Part shown: piece by piece, positions 7,779 to 17,678 of the stretch | Layout of the letters: each line of letters starts with the position of its first letter | How positions within the stretch are numbered: position 1 is the first letter of the stretch | DNA from: Promethearchaeota archaeon | GTDB lineage: Archaea; Asgardarchaeota; Hermodarchaeia; Hermodarchaeales; Hermodarchaeaceae | DNA: 64,000 nt | Assembly (NCBI GenBank): GCA_048938385.1 | Contig: JBHLMG010000010.1 | Span: 9,785 to 73,784 of the forward strand | Reading direction: 5' to 3' | Notes under the pieces: model-generated | Database searches by the model: none | What the model was told of the DNA's origin: nothing | What the model saw: only the letters and a program-made list of their open reading frames with translations | Position numbers and translations under genes: made by a program

Positions 7779-10700
7779 ATGCAGCGTCGCACACTCACTT
7801 GTTTGGTATTACTCACGCTTTTTCTCTTCTCGTCGGTGAACCTCTTCACCTCGAATGTTGGTACTCCACTCCTTGGAGAACCCGCCACCGATTCTTCGGG
7901 TGGCACCCAGATCGAATCTGCGCGCTCACCTACGGCGCCTCCACCGCCAGAAGGCCCGACCTGGGACGGGAGCGAATACCTCTATCAAGGCCTTGGACAG
8001 ACCCTACCGTCCCAAGAATTTTCTTATGGACCAACTGCAATTTTAGGCGTTACCGATCTAGATTTTGGAGAAACCGCAACAGGGCAAATCGATATCCCTC
8101 AGGGATGGACTGGCTACTATCTCACTGCTTCGGTGTACAATCTGTTTGACAAAATTTCCCACATAGCAGGTAATACACGGAACGGTAATTTTGAATCAGG
8201 TACGACATCACCGAATTACTGGGTTGAAAGCAAACGCGGAATGTCGGGAGGAGGTATTGCTGGGCTGTCTTGGAATTGGGGAACAGATTGGGGAGAAACA
8301 GACAAGGGCATCAATATTTGGGCTAATACAAGTGGTTATCCATGGCAAGCCAATCTTAACCTCATAGAATATATTGGCTGGACACAAACAATCGATCTCA
8401 ACCGCATTGATCCCACCTATGCTTGGCTGTCCTTCGATGTTCGATTCTACGATGACAATGTCCATGGACGCGATGATGATGACGAGATGGCCGTCTATGC
8501 AGAAGTGGGAGGAGCCGAGCGTATTTTTGTCTGCTGGAGGTATTGCCCTAATGCCTGGAGACAAGGCTGGCAATTTTACAACATCAATTTTTCTCTTACA
8601 CCCGACGAGCTCCAATCGTGGACTTCAGACACGATTAATGTCACCTTAGGCATGACGGTGGACTTTGATTGGACGATTAACAATTATTTTGCCATGGATT
8701 TTGATAATGTTGAACTCATCGTCCGAGGAAAAGCTAGCCCGACTGCGAATGGCTTACAACTCCGACTCAACAGCTCATCCTCCTGGGTGAATCCCACCTA
8801 TGGTTCTGGAACGATCTCCTTAGCTGGCACATGGGGTCCCTATCCTTCCGACGACTATGTTGTGGCTAGCTGGACGACTGTAAGTGCCATTAGTAGAAAT
8901 GTCGACTTCAATTATACTTTGACACTTTACATTAAACGAAGCGGAACGACCGAAGCTCAAACTGGCCCCGAGGGCTCTACCTTTTTGGTTAAGCATGGAC
9001 TTAATGCGTCCTGGACGGCTTGGTTTTTCGCCGACTTTTATTCCACTTACTATACCAACTACAACTTCACGATAAAGAAGCCAGCGGGAGGAACCTGGTC
9101 CCTGAGTAGCGTTACTGATCCGAACTTGAATTCAAAGACGGCTGAGGTTCTCGCCCAAAGTAACGCTACATATTGGTGTCTCCCCGCCTCTCTGATTACC
9201 GCCTTTGGCTGGTGGAAATTCACCTTCACCTCCTTCAACCAGATCGAATCGGTATCCGGACTGCAAAGCCTCTATCGTATTAATCCTCGCTCCCCGTCTA
9301 TCCTCTCCATCACGGTGACCTTTGAGAGCGTCACTTCCGGTGAGGTTAACCTAACCATCTACAATGCACAGCACCAACATGTGTATAGTGCGCCCACAGG
9401 TACCGTTACTGGCGGAACGCATCCCTTCACTGTGGACTTCGATGATGGAGACCTGTTTCCAGCTGGGACTTACGATTTGTGTATTTCTTACGATGATAAT
9501 GTAACCTTATCGCAAGTAGGTTTCTATCGTGCCACCTTTGATATTGAACATGACTCAAGCCTTACGCCAGAAACGACCCCGCTGACTGTGGGCTATAACG
9601 ATGGTGGTTTCTTCTATCCCCGAGTCGCCTACAACGACATCGAAACTTCTGGGAGTCCATTCATTGGTAACACCTCAGGAAGCGTCACAGTTACTGGGCA
9701 AGTGAGTGGTCGACCCCTAGTTACCTTCCGTCAAGTCGGCAGCTTATATCAAGCCATTGTCCCCGACACCTATGCCCAACCTGGCGATCACAACCTCGCA
9801 GTAACTGCCGATGACCCCTTCTACGATGCAGCGCAAACAACGATTGTTCTTCGAGTGCGTAGTTCTACTACACTCTCATCACCGACTCCTGGTTACACCG
9901 CTTACTACCTTGAAACCTTCATGCTGCAAGTCTTTTATGAAGACAACAATGGCACGGGTATCTCTGGTGCAGCTAGCTGGTTTACAACTCCGGGTTGGTC
10001 GGGCACTTCGATCACTCCAGGTGGTTCTGCGGGTTGGTACAACATCCAAGCCGACTCTGACGCGGACGGGCGAATCATTGGCACCCACACGCTCACCGTG
10101 ACGGTGACGGACCCCTCAGCCTACTATCAATCACGCACTCTCCAATTTACCATCGTCGTCCGAGGTCGTAACACCCTATTGACCTCCACGACCCCCAGTT
10201 CTGTGCCCTATGGCGCCACGGCACGATTTAGCATTACTTTATCTGATTTAGATGGAGGTGCTCCGCCTAATAATAGCACGAACAAGCTTCACCTTTCCCT
10301 TTGGCGTGGGGGAGTTCGTTGGACTTCACCAGAAGCCTCCATTATCTATGGTGGGGCAAATGGGAAATGGAACATCTCTGTTGATACAGGCTTTCTTCCT
10401 GGTGTAGGAGACTACACTTTTGAGGTGCGGTTCGAGTGGTACCACATATCCAGTGATAACTCGCCCTTCTACGGAAACCGAACCGTGGATGTCACCGTGT
10501 CTGCCCGCCTTGTGGGTACCAGCATCACCTATGATCCCCCCAATCCCATCCCCATCAATGATGACGCAGACATCACCATTTACTATCAGATCGATGATCC
10601 GATTTACTTCCCCATCAGCCGAATCTTTGGGATAGTCAAAGCGGATGTTACTGTGCTCCTAAATGGGACGAACTTGGGCACTGGATTTGATTGGGACCCA

Positions 10701-13700
10701 CAACTTGACGGTTCTTATATCCTCACGATTTACTCTTCGGACCTAAATCAAGTCGCTGTTTGGGAAATTAAAATCACGATTAATAAATCGGGTGACTCTT
10801 ATCAAGGAGCCAGTCGCACCTTTCTTTTCAATGTTCGACAACGCTTAACCCAGGTCATCGTTGATCCTCCCACTTCTACACCCTATCAGCAAAATACGCC
10901 CATAACCTTTAGTTGGTTTGATCTGGATGCGGGTTCAACACCGATCGCGCTCTCGAGCGTCTACCAGGTTACGATCTCCGGATATGGGTCTCCACAAACC
11001 TTCACTAACCCTGGAACCTGGACAGTTACCCTCGTCACCAATACATGGACTCCTGGAATCTACAGTCTAAAGCTACTCATTACTGGAGATGATCCTCCGG
11101 GAATTTATAATCAGACCAAGTCGGCTGTGACCGTCCGAATTCGCATCCACTATACGGGTGTAACGGTGCAACCCCCGAATCCCACTCCTTGGGGTCGGGA
11201 CACCCTTATGACCGTACTCTGGACCGATTTAGACATCGGAGGAAATGTGCCCATTATTGAATTGGTTCAAGTTGTTGTTTCGGATGGTCCTGGTGGGGAT
11301 CAGACCTTCTTCAGCCTCTCCTTCACCTTAGATACAGATACCTGGAGTATCGGTGAATACATTCTCAATGTGACCGTGTATGCGAGAACTTCACCCTCCC
11401 GGTCATATAACGATGCCTGGGGGAGCGTGACCGTTGTTATTCGTATACATCGCGTCGAGGTTGTGGTGCCCACCCCCTCCCCTCGAGCCTGGGGACAAGA
11501 TACAGCGATGTCGGTAACCTGGAAGGACTTGGACACCAAAACCACTATTCCGGGAATTAACCTTGACAGTATCGTTGTCTCCGACGGTCCTGGCGGCGAT
11601 CAGACCTTCTTCAGCCTCTCTTTCATATTAGACACGGATGCGTGGGGTGTCGGGGAATACCTACTCAATGTGACGGTTTACCCGGATATGACGCCGCAGC
11701 TGTACGAGATTGCGAGTTATTTAGTCACCATCACGATTCGGGCCCACTATGTCAGTGTGACGGTTGATCCGCCCGCCCAAACACCGTGGGGAGCAGACAC
11801 CTCTCTCACTATTGCCTGGCGCGATGTTGACATGGATGCGCTAATTTCCGACACAGGCCTGGACAATGTCACCATCACTGGTGGGCCAGGGGGGAATCAG
11901 GTCTTCTTCACCCTCACCCCCACTTTGAGCACTAGTAGTTGGAGTGTTAACAGTTACAGCCTCACTGTTTGGGTATATGGCAACGCTTCTTATTATGTCA
12001 ACAGTGGACCCGTAACGGTAGTAATTCGCGGACACCAGACCCAAACCGTCGTTACCCCACCCCAGCAGACTCCCTTTGGCTTTGACACAGCCATCTCTGT
12101 TTCTTGGCTAGATCTCGATCTTGGCAGTATTGATGTGCCTGGAGGAAACCTACTGTCTGTTACTGTTTCGGGAGGTCCTGGTGGGGCCCAAGTGTTTGGC
12201 AGCCTGAGTTTCACCCTAGTTACCAATACTTGGAGCGTGAATACCTACATTCTCACCGTTACCGTTTCACCCTCAAATGCGAACTACCTTGGTAGCAGTT
12301 CGCAGACCACGATCATCATCCGCATTCACTACACCTCAATCACGGTCCAAACCCCCGAACCGACCCCTTGGGGGCTTAACACCCCCCTCACCGTGACCTG
12401 GACTGACCTGGACACTGGAGGACCAGTTCCCGGAGGCCAGTTACTCCAAGTGGTGGTGTCAAATTGCCCCGTCGGTGGCGATCAACCCTTTGGTAGCCTC
12501 AGCTTCACCCTCGTCACTGACACCTGGGCTCTGAGCTCTGGCTACTCGCTTATCGTCACCGTTTACGCCACTACTGGACCCCGCTCTTACAGCGACGCCA
12601 TTGGCAGCGTACTCGTGGCCATTCGCACCCACCGCGTCAATGTCGTCGTAACTGGTCCTGCACCCGTGCCTGAAGGTGGTCGTATTTTCATCAGCATCGA
12701 ATGGTCTGACATCGATACCTTAACACCAATTGGCACTGGAGTCTTAGATTATGTGATTGTCACAAAAACATCAGGTCCTCTAAACTCCCCTGGTTTACCA
12801 TATACTAACTGGACCCACCTTGAGTTCTACATCGATGCAACTGGTTGGGATACAGGTACCTTCAAGTTAAATGTCACCGTGTATTCGTCTAACCCTAACT
12901 ATGCTGATGGTTGGGGACCAGTAAACATCGTAATTCGTGTGCACTCTATTACAGCAGATGTCGATCCTATCCCCCGAGTTCCGTTTGGCAATGATATCAA
13001 CATAACGCTCCGCGTTGATGACAGTGATGATGCCATCCCACTGCCAGAAAACCATATTTCCTCTGTGGTGATCTCTGGGGGACCGTCAACTATCACCTTG
13101 GATAGTAGTAACTGGTGGATCTGGGTTGAAAACGGCACATTCGGCGTTGGCACTTATCTAATCACCTTAGATGTGTCAGGCTGGGCACTCAGTACCTATA
13201 ACCTTCAAATCAATGTGTATACCTCTTCGAGTTACGGAAATGGTGTGGTTTATACTCGACTAATAGTCCGAGCCCTCGCGATTAGCTTTACTTACCAAAG
13301 CCCACCCGTTGTTCCTTGGGGCGAAGATGGACTGCTCATCGTCACCTACATTGTGAGCGATGATGCCACGCAAGATGGTAATCCAATTGAACCGCCTGGG
13401 ATTACCATCAACATCGCCACACTAACGCAAGGTGTGCATTTTGATTGGACTTATTGGACGAACGGAAAATACAACATCACCTTTTACAGTTCGTACCTCA
13501 CATCCGTGCAGACCTACCAATTTGACATCACCATCTCTAAATCCGCTGAATATTCCACGGGCGTACTGAATGCTGTACCACTAACGGTCCGTTCGTTGTA
13601 CACCTGGTTACATCCGACAGATGTCCCAATAACCCCCTTCGGCGATCATGTCCTAATCGATGTCGAATACATCGTACTCGATGGTGAAAGCTCCCTTTTT

Positions 13701-16700
13701 GGACAACCCATCCATACTGGAAGCGAAATACTAACTATCACAGGCCTTGATGGCTTCAACCCCACCTCTGTAACCTGGCAATGGGTTGGCGCATTATCGA
13801 TCTATCGAATCAACATCAGTGCTACCGATATCACCGCCATCCAAGCTTACAAAATCATGATCAGCATTTCCGGCTCAGGCGCTGGGTATGACCCCGACAT
13901 TATTCCTTCACTCACTTTCAATGTGCGCACCGTTTTCACCGCACTAGCTGTGACGCCTGTCGACGCCCAGGCCTACCTTGACAACTTCACCATCCAGATT
14001 ACATATACGGTTAATGACCCTGACAGCTCCCGCAATGGGCGAGGCATCGATGGCCAAGCCTCTATCATTGAACTCGTCGAATACCCTGGGCTATTTACTG
14101 TGATTCCACTTGGCAATGGGATCTACAACATCATTATCAACTCAACTGGTGTAGGTGCGCCTGGTTCGTATCTCGCCACCATCACCACCGCCTGGACCCA
14201 ATCGCCACCCCCCTACGCCATCCAGACCCGACAAGTCACCCTCTTCGTAACCGAACGCCCTACCAGAATCCGAAACACCATCGGCGAGGAATATGGGTAT
14301 CTCGACGAAATCCTCATAAACTTCACCTACTCGGATCTAATACGCCTTGAATGGATCCTGAATACCTCCTATGGGGGAGGACACATCTTCATTTCGGTCT
14401 ACAACAATACTCCTGCGACTCCAGTTTTGATTCCAAACGATGCGTGGTATGTTACAGAAATCATTGGAGGAACTCATGCTTTTCAACTTCATATCCAAGC
14501 TAACTATTTCCTTAGAGTCAACACCTTCTTTGATTTCCTAGTCAATGTAACTTGGCAACCCGCAACAGCCCCCTACTTCCAATTCCGAATTTTCGAATTC
14601 CGAGCCTATGTGGTAGGTCAACGAACCAATGTGATCTTCCAACCAAGTACAGGACCTACTCCCTACTACTCGAACATCAACATCGTATTTCGATTTGTCA
14701 CTGAACAGGGTGCACCTATTAACCAAGATAGCTGGCCTTTAGTTGCTGTATCCCTTCTCTGCGAACAAGTGCCTAGCTTTGGCATTCAAGGACTAGACTG
14801 GGATTACACCTTTACAGGAAGTGGGTTTTATGAAATCTGGATCGACTCTACCCGACTCATTGGAATTGGCTCTTACACCTTCTATGTGAATGTAACCTAC
14901 CCTGGAGGGGCTGACCCCTTCTTTGAATCCCAGTACAACGAACCTGTCACACGATTAGTGCGATACATCGATACCTTGTTAACCTATATCGATCCCGGTC
15001 CCTTGTATTATGGCGATGACCTGACCCTCACGGTCCGATATTGGGATCGCGATAACGATGTCCCAGTACCAAACATCCCACCAATTAATTTCACTCTTAC
15101 TGGTGGAACCTACTCAGGACCAACTCCATTGGGAGGGGGATGGTGGGAATTTATCGTTGCCACCTCGGGAATAGGTGCTGGTGGAGAATTCACGATTTCA
15201 GTCTATGCAAATCAAAGCTATTACTATTGGCAGAGCCTATCTGTTCCAGTCTACATCTATGAAGTCCCATTACAAATCACACTCGATACTCCACCCATCA
15301 TCGATAGGTATTATGGGCAATTGGACCCTGCTTGGGTTAATGTAACCATAACAATTGGTGCGGGTTCGTTGAAAGACACTGAAGTCCTCAATGCCTTAGT
15401 TCAAGCCATATGGGATGAACCCACCCTCACTTTCATTAACAACACCGATGGAACTTATTCGTGTGACATAGGCACACTTTGGAATAAGGGTCGATACACC
15501 ATAGAAATTCGAGCATCATTACCTGGATACTACTCCAACGATTCAATTTTCATCATTTATACCATTACAGCTGGTCCAAGCATCCTCGATGTGTATGGAA
15601 GGCCAAGCACATCATTCTACTTGTATGCGGGTGACCTCTATTTTATCGCCGTCAACTTTACAACTCCAGACGGAACGCCCCTAACAGGTGCAGAAGTCAC
15701 TTGGAGTAGTGCAGATTTAACACCATCCTCCGGAGACCTTTCTGAGACTTTCCCTGGAATCTATAATGCGAGTTTCAGTTCGCTTGGTTACGGATTATTC
15801 ATCTACACAATTTCTGTCAAGGCATCCTTAGGCGGAAATGTCCAGTCGCAAACGCTCACATTCCAAATTGATGTCCGCTACACACCGGCAAAGATCCAAC
15901 CTGCAGACAACAACTATTTCATACCTGTAGAGTATTCTGAAAACTTCACCCTCATATTCTACTTCAATGACACACTGAATAACCAACCAATACCTAGCGA
16001 ACTAATCCTTGCTAGATGGGATCCACTTCCTGGGGGAAATGCAACGCTAAATCCAATGGCCGGTGGGTTCTACAACTACACATTTCCAGCTACACTGTTA
16101 GCTGGGCTCACATATCCATTATATCTTACTTACATTGGTTCGACAGCCTTTGATTGTCCTCCAACCACAATAACCATCCAAATAACACCACGCCTAACAA
16201 GCCCTGTCGACCAAGCGAATATCGTGTCCGTTCGTGAAGACTGGAATAAGACGATTAGTATTCTTCAAGTACCTGTTGGTGATTGGCTCTACATCTACCT
16301 CAATTATACTGATGCTGATGGCATACCAATTCTTTACGGAGAAGGGATCGTTACTGTTGGCGATGTCGGAGTGTCCGGAGTGTTCTATTTTGATGCGAGT
16401 AAAGGACTGTATGTGGTAACTCTCAATGCTAGTGACTTCGGTCGTGGAACTTGGTCCTTACGGGTGACAGTTTCGAGAACCAACTTCGAAAGTTCAACCT
16501 ATGCAACTAACTTCGAAGTGATTCAGATTCCCACAGCACTGACGGTCACAGAAATTGATGAAGTCCCAGTAGTGGAACCCGGAAGTGCGTACTTCTATAT
16601 TGGATCACCACTGACCATTCACCTCTTTCTAAATGACACTTGGCACAATGAAGGGGTTGAAGGCGCTACGCTTACCCTTCCCAGAACTCTAGTTGATGCA

Positions 16701-17678
16701 GGTTTTGTAATTGTACCACTAGAAGACGGTTACTATGAAATCCAAGGAACCTGGAATCTCTTTTCGCTCACAACAACTTCAATAGCTCTCACGGTTACAG
16801 CTGAGAAGACTGAACCGCTAAGGCACGAAACCGCCCAATTGTCAGGGTGGGTTCTGACATTTTCGCCCCCAGCCACTTTGCTAATAACAGTGTATGGTGG
16901 AATCGGTGCGGCGGTGATGCTCATCGTCGTCCTTATGACTTGGCTCTTATGGGTTCGTGTCTTTTCTATTCCTTGGGAAGTTCGTCGGATGCGATCGTTA
17001 GCAAAGACCGTCGAGAAGGACGAAAACTTCAAGCTAAGTAAGAAGGATCTAAAGCGCTTCCATGCCCGTGAACTTACGCTCAAGGATAAGGTCACTACAG
17101 CCATGGCTACCGTTGGGGTGGCGGCAACGCCCGCGATGATGCCGGCTATCGAAACGGTTGAAGAGGTTACAGCCACTGAGGAAGACATCATGGGAGAACT
17201 CGACAAGATTCCTGGGTTAGGCCCTGAAGAGAAAGGTGTACTCGCTGAAGAGATGCGCAAGATTCCACGCAAGGATCGAATCTGGTTCCTAGACGACCTC
17301 CGCAAGCAGATGGGCCAGCGTCGGATGGACTTTCTCACAAAACGTGAATTAGGGGAAGTGACCGAAGTACCCGAAGCAATACCACCGACGGAAGCTCCAC
17401 CAGAGGTGCCCCTGGACAAAGTGAAGGCCGCTGAACCACCACCACCTGAGAAGGCGTTAACGGAGGACCGGACCGCACCAACTGTACTACCACCGGAGTT
17501 TCAGCCACCACCGGTTGACCCCGCGGTGGAAGCGGAGATTAACCGTGAGTTAGCCAAGATTCCTGGCCTCTCGGCGCAGGAGAAAAAGGACTTACTTGAC
17601 CACCTGAAGTACCTGTCGAAAGAGGAGCGGAAGGCAACTTACATTTCGTTACGCCAGTCTGCGGACAGGGAAGACTAG
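7779..17678 (+). CDS. giant (3299 aa) type I surface protein: signal peptide, jelly-roll-like head, ~25-30 Ig-like modules, one TM helix, ~235-aa cytoplasmic tail
   Basis: Single uninterrupted ORF. N-terminal signal peptide is MQRRTLTCLVLLTLFLFSSVNLF. The body is reiterated ~100-aa beta-rich modules, each ending in (V/I)x(V/I)R, with many N-x-S/T sequons. TM helix is LLITVYGGIGAAVMLIVVLMTWLLWVRVF (nt ~16881-16967), followed by a charged tail. Confidence 0.9.
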   Translation: MQRRTLTCLVLLTLFLFSSVNLFTSNVGTPLLGEPATDSSGGTQIESARSPTAPPPPEGPTWDGSEYLYQGLGQTLPSQEFSYGPTAILGVTDLDFGETATGQIDIPQGWTGYYLTASVYNLFDKISHIAGNTRNGNFESGTTSPNYWVESKRGMSGGGIAGLSWNWGTDWGETDKGINIWANTSGYPWQANLNLIEYIGWTQTIDLNRIDPTYAWLSFDVRFYDDNVHGRDDDDEMAVYAEVGGAERIFVCWRYCPNAWRQGWQFYNINFSLTPDELQSWTSDTINVTLGMTVDFDWTINNYFAMDFDNVELIVRGKASPTANGLQLRLNSSSSWVNPTYGSGTISLAGTWGPYPSDDYVVASWTTVSAISRNVDFNYTLTLYIKRSGTTEAQTGPEGSTFLVKHGLNASWTAWFFADFYSTYYTNYNFTIKKPAGGTWSLSSVTDPNLNSKTAEVLAQSNATYWCLPASLITAFGWWKFTFTSFNQIESVSGLQSLYRINPRSPSILSITVTFESVTSGEVNLTIYNAQHQHVYSAPTGTVTGGTHPFTVDFDDGDLFPAGTYDLCISYDDNVTLSQVGFYRATFDIEHDSSLTPETTPLTVGYNDGGFFYPRVAYNDIETSGSPFIGNTSGSVTVTGQVSGRPLVTFRQVGSLYQAIVPDTYAQPGDHNLAVTADDPFYDAAQTTIVLRVRSSTTLSSPTPGYTAYYLETFMLQVFYEDNNGTGISGAASWFTTPGWSGTSITPGGSAGWYNIQADSDADGRIIGTHTLTVTVTDPSAYYQSRTLQFTIVVRGRNTLLTSTTPSSVPYGATARFSITLSDLDGGAPPNNSTNKLHLSLWRGGVRWTSPEASIIYGGANGKWNISVDTGFLPGVGDYTFEVRFEWYHISSDNSPFYGNRTVDVTVSARLVGTSITYDPPNPIPINDDADITIYYQIDDPIYFPISRIFGIVKADVTVLLNGTNLGTGFDWDPQLDGSYILTIYSSDLNQVAVWEIKITINKSGDSYQGASRTFLFNVRQRLTQVIVDPPTSTPYQQNTPITFSWFDLDAGSTPIALSSVYQVTISGYGSPQTFTNPGTWTVTLVTNTWTPGIYSLKLLITGDDPPGIYNQTKSAVTVRIRIHYTGVTVQPPNPTPWGRDTLMTVLWTDLDIGGNVPIIELVQVVVSDGPGGDQTFFSLSFTLDTDTWSIGEYILNVTVYARTSPSRSYNDAWGSVTVVIRIHRVEVVVPTPSPRAWGQDTAMSVTWKDLDTKTTIPGINLDSIVVSDGPGGDQTFFSLSFILDTDAWGVGEYLLNVTVYPDMTPQLYEIASYLVTITIRAHYVSVTVDPPAQTPWGADTSLTIAWRDVDMDALISDTGLDNVTITGGPGGNQVFFTLTPTLSTSSWSVNSYSLTVWVYGNASYYVNSGPVTVVIRGHQTQTVVTPPQQTPFGFDTAISVSWLDLDLGSIDVPGGNLLSVTVSGGPGGAQVFGSLSFTLVTNTWSVNTYILTVTVSPSNANYLGSSSQTTIIIRIHYTSITVQTPEPTPWGLNTPLTVTWTDLDTGGPVPGGQLLQVVVSNCPVGGDQPFGSLSFTLVTDTWALSSGYSLIVTVYATTGPRSYSDAIGSVLVAIRTHRVNVVVTGPAPVPEGGRIFISIEWSDIDTLTPIGTGVLDYVIVTKTSGPLNSPGLPYTNWTHLEFYIDATGWDTGTFKLNVTVYSSNPNYADGWGPVNIVIRVHSITADVDPIPRVPFGNDINITLRVDDSDDAIPLPENHISSVVISGGPSTITLDSSNWWIWVENGTFGVGTYLITLDVSGWALSTYNLQINVYTSSSYGNGVVYTRLIVRALAISFTYQSPPVVPWGEDGLLIVTYIVSDDATQDGNPIEPPGITINIATLTQGVHFDWTYWTNGKYNITFYSSYLTSVQTYQFDITISKSAEYSTGVLNAVPLTVRSLYTWLHPTDVPITPFGDHVLIDVEYIVLDGESSLFGQPIHTGSEILTITGLDGFNPTSVTWQWVGALSIYRINISATDITAIQAYKIMISISGSGAGYDPDIIPSLTFNVRTVFTALAVTPVDAQAYLDNFTIQITYTVNDPDSSRNGRGIDGQASIIELVEYPGLFTVIPLGNGIYNIIINSTGVGAPGSYLATITTAWTQSPPPYAIQTRQVTLFVTERPTRIRNTIGEEYGYLDEILINFTYSDLIRLEWILNTSYGGGHIFISVYNNTPATPVLIPNDAWYVTEIIGGTHAFQLHIQANYFLRVNTFFDFLVNVTWQPATAPYFQFRIFEFRAYVVGQRTNVIFQPSTGPTPYYSNINIVFRFVTEQGAPINQDSWPLVAVSLLCEQVPSFGIQGLDWDYTFTGSGFYEIWIDSTRLIGIGSYTFYVNVTYPGGADPFFESQYNEPVTRLVRYIDTLLTYIDPGPLYYGDDLTLTVRYWDRDNDVPVPNIPPINFTLTGGTYSGPTPLGGGWWEFIVATSGIGAGGEFTISVYANQSYYYWQSLSVPVYIYEVPLQITLDTPPIIDRYYGQLDPAWVNVTITIGAGSLKDTEVLNALVQAIWDEPTLTFINNTDGTYSCDIGTLWNKGRYTIEIRASLPGYYSNDSIFIIYTITAGPSILDVYGRPSTSFYLYAGDLYFIAVNFTTPDGTPLTGAEVTWSSADLTPSSGDLSETFPGIYNASFSSLGYGLFIYTISVKASLGGNVQSQTLTFQIDVRYTPAKIQPADNNYFIPVEYSENFTLIFYFNDTLNNQPIPSELILARWDPLPGGNATLNPMAGGFYNYTFPATLLAGLTYPLYLTYIGSTAFDCPPTTITIQITPRLTSPVDQANIVSVREDWNKTISILQVPVGDWLYIYLNYTDADGIPILYGEGIVTVGDVGVSGVFYFDASKGLYVVTLNASDFGRGTWSLRVTVSRTNFESSTYATNFEVIQIPTALTVTEIDEVPVVEPGSAYFYIGSPLTIHLFLNDTWHNEGVEGATLTLPRTLVDAGFVIVPLEDGYYEIQGTWNLFSLTTTSIALTVTAEKTEPLRHETAQLSGWVLTFSPPATLLITVYGGIGAAVMLIVVLMTWLLWVRVFSIPWEVRRMRSLAKTVEKDENFKLSKKDLKRFHARELTLKDKVTTAMATVGVAATPAMMPAIETVEEVTATEEDIMGELDKIPGLGPEEKGVLAEEMRKIPRKDRIWFLDDLRKQMGQRRMDFLTKRELGEVTEVPEAIPPTEAPPEVPLDKVKAAEPPPPEKALTEDRTAPTVLPPEFQPPPVDPAVEAEINRELAKIPGLSAQEKKDLLDHLKYLSKEERKATYISLRQSADRED
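10834..13270 (+). repeat. in-frame tandem array of ~8 units of ~300 bp (about 100-aa Ig-like modules) inside the giant gene
   Basis: Units share HY/HR-x-V-x-V-x-PP-x-PTPWG-x-DT...W-x-DLD...VVVSDGPGGDQ-x-FFSLSF-x-LDTD-x-W...Y-x-LNVTVY. A 23-nt exact match, GATCAGACCTTCTTCAGCCTCTC, occurs at 11298-11320 and 11598-11620, exactly 300 nt apart. Confidence 0.8.

Follow-up and report, generated by a model that had tools for sequence, protein, structure and literature searches.

A duplicated three-helix repeat at the C-terminus of giant Asgard surface proteins, a candidate cytoplasmic docking cassette

The stretch of DNA analysed here, 64,000 nucleotides of the contig JBHLMG010000010.1 of a Promethearchaeota archaeon (positions 9,785 to 73,784; hereafter the window), contains the gene of a giant surface protein whose last 240 residues follow a membrane helix, and the question raised by this locus is what a tail of that size may do. 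An earlier inspection of the letters alone (the sequence-only reading) had described in it a transmembrane (TM) helix, a basic segment, two related motifs of helix-hairpin-helix type and a proline-rich linker, and had proposed that the whole served as an intracellular adaptor platform. All of the quoted elements were recovered, because the translation of positions 16881-17678 was identical and corresponds to the C-terminus of the open reading frame (ORF) at 7779-17678. Our results showed that the two motifs are copies of one repeat and that the tail forms a family with no match above cut-off in Pfam or NCBIfam, present across about half of the sampled Asgard genomes. As to its role, we lean towards a cytoplasmic, multivalent protein-docking cassette of type I giant surface glycoproteins, which seems to be specific to Asgard archaea, the repeat-only profile having been run on Asgard genomes.

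The two repeats and their predicted fold

The 11-mer AAGATTCCTGG, reported before as the shared nucleotide core of the motifs, was indeed found at 17205 and 17556 and nowhere else in the window, which is once in each motif, when 0.05 occurrences were expected. At the protein level, the pairwise local score of motif 1 against motif 2 was 67, compared with a mean of 23 +/- 4.4 for shuffled sequences, and none of 5000 shuffles scored as high. A profile-profile comparison (hhalign) of the two sets of motif columns, taken from 19 homologous tails, gave a probability of 96.9% and an E-value of 1.6e-10 over 52 columns. Such a relationship lies far outside what chance would give, and the two motifs are a true duplication. 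The relationship that had been proposed for them was therefore upheld, whereas the proposed length of about 37 amino acids (aa) had to be corrected, since the unit comprises about 46 aa when its third helix is included. The two copies are located as follows:

17172..17309, + strand: repeat 1 (aa 3132-3177), three-helix module; repeat hidden Markov model (HMM) E-value 3e-23; helices at tail residues 72-80, 87-99 and 102-129
17523..17660, + strand: repeat 2 (aa 3249-3294), three-helix module with the connector K-I-P-G-L-S; repeat HMM E-value 6e-20; predicted local distance difference test score (pLDDT) >90; helices at tail residues 186-197, 204-214 and 219-236

The third helix of repeat 1 runs on to aa ~3191 (nucleotide 17348). 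This repeat contains the connector K-I-P-G-L-G as well as the near-invariant helix R-I-W-F-L-D-D-L-x-x-Q-M. When the 46-position HMM of the unit was applied to the family, one to three copies were detected in every tail, always close to the C-terminus.

Structural models were obtained with AlphaFold2 for the tail of the window protein (19-row alignment, mean pLDDT 69.9, predicted template modelling score (pTM) 0.28) and for the compact tail of a paralogue encoded in the same genome (28 rows, pLDDT 80.0, pTM 0.37). Both models agreed in that each repeat was built of three helices, with a pLDDT of about 90 for repeat 2 of the window protein and for both repeats of the paralogue. The hexapeptide K-I-P-G-L-x joined helix 1 to helix 2 and preceded an S/T-x-E-E helix cap, the stretch from one repeat to the other was disordered, and the low pTM gave no sign of repeat-repeat packing. 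In a set of 32 repeats less than 60% identical to each other, the conserved columns were hydrophobic residues in a heptad-like arrangement, the proline of the connector (24/32) and the leucine next to it (29/32), the S/T/G cap (28/32), the E-E pair and a K/R (28/32). Among the paralogues of this genome, the connector takes the forms L-E-G-L-G, L-P-R-L-E, L-D-A-L-G, L-P-A-L-S and F-P-Q-L-S. Repeat 1 held nine of the 16 columns that were invariant among 28 diverse tails, mainly in the helix R-I-W-F-L-D-D-L-x-x-Q-M.

The label of helix-hairpin-helix (HhH) given to the motifs did not withstand this analysis. According to it, the repeats would lie at the inner membrane face and either bind nucleic acid there as HhH elements or together form an (HhH)2-like domain. 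The likeness to the HhH families (PF00633, PF14520; PsbU) consists in the pattern h-x-x-h-P-G-h-G between two helices, and h-P-G-h-G is literally present in repeat 1 of the window protein, the whole pattern being found only in repeat 1 of this subfamily. Sub-threshold Pfam matches on the hairpin were also obtained, namely PsbU in 7 of 19 tails (best E-value 7e-4, 20 bits against a cut-off of 24.5), HHH_5 in two of them (E-value 0.078, 13.3 bits against a cut-off of 27) and HHH in two (E-value 0.42), and Foldseek listed the HhH region of RecR at an E-value of 5. However, no HhH model of Pfam attained its cut-off, and the tail of the window protein itself had no HhH match. The HhH consensus has a G-h-G hairpin followed, four positions on, by a small residue of helix 2; in the 32 diverse repeats the first hairpin glycine was present in 13 and the second in five, while 28 had K/R where the small residue should be. 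Moreover, no HhH protein appeared in the top 50 of two exhaustive VIA-align structure searches (48,161 chains), and the repeats showed no (HhH)2 pairing, since 19-98 disordered residues separate them and the models predict no packing of one on the other. Their net charges (-3 and +1) are not basic and weigh weakly against DNA binding. Taken together, these data make an HhH function of the tail very improbable.

The LEM, HeH and SAP folds were considered as well and rejected, because the only Pfam match among them was YqbF_HeH in 2 of 19 tails (E-value 0.0022), with no LEM or SAP match, and because the models show a unit of three helices with a connector of six residues. A cluster of the AlphaFold DB named 'LEM domain-containing protein' was listed at an E-value of 1.5 with a probability of 0.6.

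Topology and constraint of the host protein

The tail ends a single ORF of 3299 codons, in which the following parts were recognised in addition to the repeats:

7779..17678, + strand: giant type I surface-protein gene, 3299 aa, assigned from the single ORF, its only two hydrophobic segments and the sequon counts
7779-7862, + strand: signal peptide (aa 1-28), the N-terminal hydrophobic segment
between the signal peptide and the TM helix of 7779-17678, + strand: ectodomain of about 3000 aa, rich in sequons
16878..16955, + strand: single TM helix (aa 3034-3059), Kyte-Doolittle 19-mer maximum 2.5
16956..17090, + strand: basic juxtamembrane region (aa 3060-3104), net charge +7, modelled as helices, which begins with the conserved box S-I-P-W-x-V-R-R-M-R
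17091..17150, + strand: uncharged stretch of 20 aa (aa 3105-3124) with two prolines, not a second TM helix

The cytoplasmic location of the tail and the type I topology, both assumed in the sequence-only reading, were supported indirectly by several features. The protein has only two hydrophobic segments, and the charges flanking the TM helix (net +3 on the C-terminal side, 0 on the N-terminal side) follow the positive-inside rule. The ectodomain, in which a Pfam scan gave weak Ig-like matches, contains 51 N-x-S/T sites (sequons) and the tail contains none. The same contrast was observed across 49 family members, where sequons amounted to 1.99 per 100 aa in the ectodomains and 0.07 in the tails; only eight were observed in 10,959 aa of tail, whereas 218 were expected at the ectodomain rate. 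In these 49 proteins asparagine made up 5.7% of the ectodomains and 0.7% of the tails, and charged residues 14% and 36%, respectively. On the basis of the composition and of the sequon counts, the tail was placed in the cytoplasm.

A different topology would result if aa 3105-3124 were a second membrane span, which would leave the repeats outside the cell. This segment is a run of 20 uncharged residues with a basic loop before it and an acidic part after it, as could be expected of a span. Nevertheless, its Kyte-Doolittle 19-mer value was 1.21, within a range of 0.2-1.75 for the tails of the family (two rows with a wrong tail anchor excluded), it contains prolines (2-3 in the family), and it was not modelled as one helix. 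The uncharged run varied from 6 to 21 aa among the members; in many of them it was only 6-17 aa long, and it was short or charged in others and charged and non-hydrophobic in distant ones. A second TM helix was rejected for these reasons, and the scarcity of sequons in the tails argues in the same way against repeats exposed outside, so that we regard this arrangement as hardly credible.

The tail was also the better conserved part of the protein. Its identity to 18 homologues was 54-80%, compared with 27-59% for the ectodomain, and in the comparison with a paralogue of the same genome the values were 66% and 27%, respectively. The juxtamembrane part, which both AlphaFold2 models rendered as helices with moderate confidence, had its own conserved positions, since the P, V and R of the box were invariant across 28 tails. 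A box of the form h-P-x-x-h-R-K-h ... K-G-K-I-P was found right after the TM helix at 17 loci belonging to at least six Asgard families. The juxtamembrane box may be conserved in its own right, serving membrane binding or recognition.

On the opposite strand, a 228-codon ORF (window 16733-17419, - strand) overlaps the region coding for the tail, and a similar open antisense frame was seen in the paralogue on contig C32 of this genome. Rather than being a gene, it probably arises as an artefact of the richness of the sense frame in E, K and L.

Distribution of the cassette among Asgard archaea

The recurrence of the motif in the tails of other archaeal giant surface proteins, which had been suggested as a check, was observed both within this genome and beyond it, the same cassette being present in paralogues and in other Asgard giants. 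The source assembly is an Asgard genome (Promethearchaeota) of 2.48 Mb with a completeness of 90%. Five of its giant ORFs end in the cassette (1424, 1515, 2175, 2182 and 3299 aa, the third being cut by the contig end), three of them in tandem, and no other ORF of the genome carried the repeat, nor was a soluble paralogue of the repeat found in it. The tandem trio lies at G000:C24:85929-101570, where the proteins comprise 1414, 1512 and 2169 aa when counted from the first start codon; the third gene has a third copy of the repeat, a low-complexity stretch rich in A, E and V, and, in the assembly, a run of N. The orthologue in a close relative has immediately upstream of it another giant gene (4066 aa) that bears the same tail, and the genes downstream in that genome, for an ADP-forming acetyl-CoA synthetase, a flavodiiron protein and HMG-CoA synthase/thiolase/DUF35, are syntenic with those of the window.

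A search of 1.84 billion representative proteins was carried out with a profile of the full tail, which is insensitive to single repeats, and yielded 41 matches. Of these, 38 belonged to the family and had the tail at, or close to, the C-terminal end of large proteins or of fragments; the homologues were named Promethearchaeota or Hermodarchaeota archaeon. At least three (P0056-P0058) were not members, two of them being low-complexity look-alikes of the 'M-S-P-E-E-R' type. These two, P0057 and P0058, are unrelated proteins with many tandem helical repeats of the form 'L-x-x-M-S-P-E-E-R-x-x-L' and match the repeat profile weakly, indicating that the S/T-P-E-E-R helix-cap pattern is not diagnostic by itself.

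A set of 400 Asgard species genomes was screened, and all 18 genomes of the family to which the window belongs had the full tail. The profile of the repeat alone gave matches in 216 of the 400 genomes and in 45 of 85 genera, counts in which kin are not independent, many genomes are incomplete, and members of several of the matched families had been included in the profile; under the same conditions it gave none in about 100 genomes of families f2-f14. In all 26 matches inspected outside the family, the ORF was large and a TM helix preceded the repeat. The juxtamembrane box also preceded it in most of them, with no obvious basic box in the proteins of longin type, and the inspected examples, those of longin type included, came from at least eight further Asgard families. 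Eight proteins of Loki type from other Asgard genomes (~860-3030 aa) had an ectodomain, a TM helix, a domain of longin/roadblock appearance, one repeat and a long terminal part of helical or coiled-coil type, the longin/roadblock-looking domain being judged by eye and having no Pfam match.

Comparisons with known families yielded no assignment. No Pfam or NCBIfam model scored above its cut-off on the tail of the window protein or on 29 (19 + 10) homologous tails or more distant relatives, and a PDB sequence search with the full-tail profile returned nothing. No significant match was obtained with Foldseek against the PDB, the AlphaFold DB clusters and the ESM Atlas, or with an Atlas feature search, and the tail was not found described in the literature searches. 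We propose that the Asgard tail cassette, defined by a TM helix, the basic juxtamembrane box and one to three copies of the 46-aa repeat at the C-terminus of a large secreted ORF, be considered a new family.

Possible functions and relation to known systems

The claim that the tail is an adaptor platform inside the cell was supported in its general form, that of a conserved and recurrent cytoplasmic tail, but no cytoskeletal or other partner was identified. Part of that claim rested on the segment between the repeats, which contains two features:

17349..17522, + strand: proline-rich disordered linker (aa 3191-3248), pLDDT <50
17463-17498, + strand: short motif E-D-R-T-A-P-T-V-L-P-P-E within the linker, kept in 20 of 27 long-linker tails

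If this linker were the functional part, it would dock profilin or another proline-recognition module and link the protein to actin. Three observations are in favour: the linker of the window protein has 24% proline, the short motif is retained as stated above (scored as E-D-R-T-A-P-T-V-L-P-P) and is a candidate linear motif, and the genome has a profilin-like ORF as well as actin homologues. The former, a 143-aa ORF at G000:C23:91767-92042, gave 24.2 bits with the Pfam model Profilin, just below the cut-off of 25 bits, and to judge from its sequence is likely an Asgard profilin. On the other hand, profilin-type polyproline ligands have about five or more consecutive prolines, whereas the longest run was four in the window protein and from one to four across the family, and the P-P-P-P of the window protein was not preserved in its orthologues. 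The linker itself varied between 19 and 98 aa and between 5 and 31% proline; a short version of 19-30 aa, poor in proline, was found in three of the five paralogues of this genome and in most of the family, so that the proline-rich version is specific to one subfamily. In addition, no WW or SH3_1 domain was found in the 90%-complete genome. A profilin-type ligand was consequently rejected, as its site is unconserved and the linker nearly absent in most of the family. The polyproline docking site could not be sustained as a general feature of these tails, and we consider docking through the linker to be decidedly unlikely. The largest member seen, an open frame of 7129 aa in another genome, has the same tail with a linker of about 175 aa composed almost wholly of P, E, V and T.

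The tail could also act as a signal for biogenesis, sorting or turnover, for instance in placement into protrusions, in quality control or in regulated shedding. Its constant position at the extreme C-terminus, adjoining the conserved juxtamembrane box, and its presence on otherwise unrelated ectodomains would agree with such a role. In the known C-terminal sorting signals of archaea, a TM helix is accompanied by a short motif and by a few basic residues. The tails, in contrast, are 185-260 aa long and contain folded duplicated domains, unlike those signals, and no sortase-like gene was found nearby. An archaeosortase-type signal (PGF-CTERM and others) was rejected, because 240 residues, conserved and folded, come after the TM helix of the window protein and no NCBIfam sorting-domain model matched. 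We therefore judge a sorting or turnover role to be unlikely.

The reading towards which we lean remains the docking cassette. Paralogues with very different outer parts bear the same tail, from which we infer protein-protein docking to a common partner. The basic juxtamembrane helix would adjoin the membrane and be followed by two independent bundles of ~46 aa, derived from an ancient duplication and carried on flexible linkers. Through them, the cassette would connect all of its carriers to a single shared partner in the cytoplasm, or to one another. The contact would be made by a conserved face of the bundles, above all by the W-F-L-D-L-Q helix of repeat 1, and the tandem copies would add avidity. 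The gene neighbourhood gave no lead to such a partner, since the giant genes and unrelated metabolic paralogues were all that the three loci of this genome had in common, and the synteny with close relatives was equally uninformative.

A broader proposal is that the box and the repeats constitute an ancient, Asgard-wide device for coupling the outside to the inside of the cell, by which surface glycoproteins are tethered to the actin cytoskeleton or to the longin/small-GTPase machinery. The latter was considered as a candidate because the repeat is fused to a longin-looking domain in the Loki-type proteins. We regard this proposal as conceivable, though doubtful; if true, the device would be a prokaryotic counterpart of the tails of eukaryotic adhesion receptors.

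In the two Asgard archaea that have been both cultured and imaged, an ordered S-layer is lacking, and the actin-filled protrusions carry numerous complex proteins on their surface (PMC9834061). Cells of this kind, rich in surface proteins and without an ordered S-layer, are the setting in which the tail would matter. Should its partner be cytoskeletal or belong to the GTPase/longin machinery, the cassette would bear on the origin of surface-to-cytoskeleton coupling before eukaryotes; should the tails bind only each other, they could form an inner scaffold in place of an S-layer lattice. The 46-aa bundles, or the 240-aa tail as a whole, offer a small and expressible bait for the intracellular partner.

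Among the closest known systems are the B/Z domain of staphylococcal protein A and similar modules of Gram-positive bacteria (streptococcal beta-protein, GA-like modules of Embp/Ebh). Three-helix binding modules of the protein A type were the nearest structural look-alikes of the repeat, although the matches were generic, and in the predicted structure the repeat has the up-down-up arrangement of three helices in ~50 aa that characterises the SpA B-domain. A profile of 33 diverse repeats also picked protein A, with the connector and helix 2 aligned to L-P-N-L-N-E-E-Q-R-N-A-F-I-Q-S-L-K. However, single Z/B domains reached only an E-value of ~0.5 and 13 bits, significance being attained only by the summed scores of engineered chains of three to five copies, and there was no match to the Pfam B domain in 19 homologous tails. 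We read the repeat and protein A as sharing the same simple architecture and claim no homology between them. The XD domain of the paramyxovirus phosphoprotein, a three-helix bundle that binds the nucleocapsid, is another module of this kind, with no significant sequence relation to the repeat and with a viral, soluble context.

With regard to the protein as a whole, eukaryotic adhesion receptors (integrin beta, cadherin, CD44), whose short conserved tails recruit adaptors, are comparable in the single membrane pass, the conserved tail and the basic juxtamembrane segment; there is no relation in sequence or fold, and the likeness is one of functional analogy only. The same design is found in the Asgard surface glycoproteins with cytoplasmic longin/roadblock tails, in which a single TM helix likewise joins an ectodomain that is variable and rich in sequons to a tail that is conserved. 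The tail encoded in the window differs from theirs in having no longin-like part, and consists of only the juxtamembrane box and the repeats.

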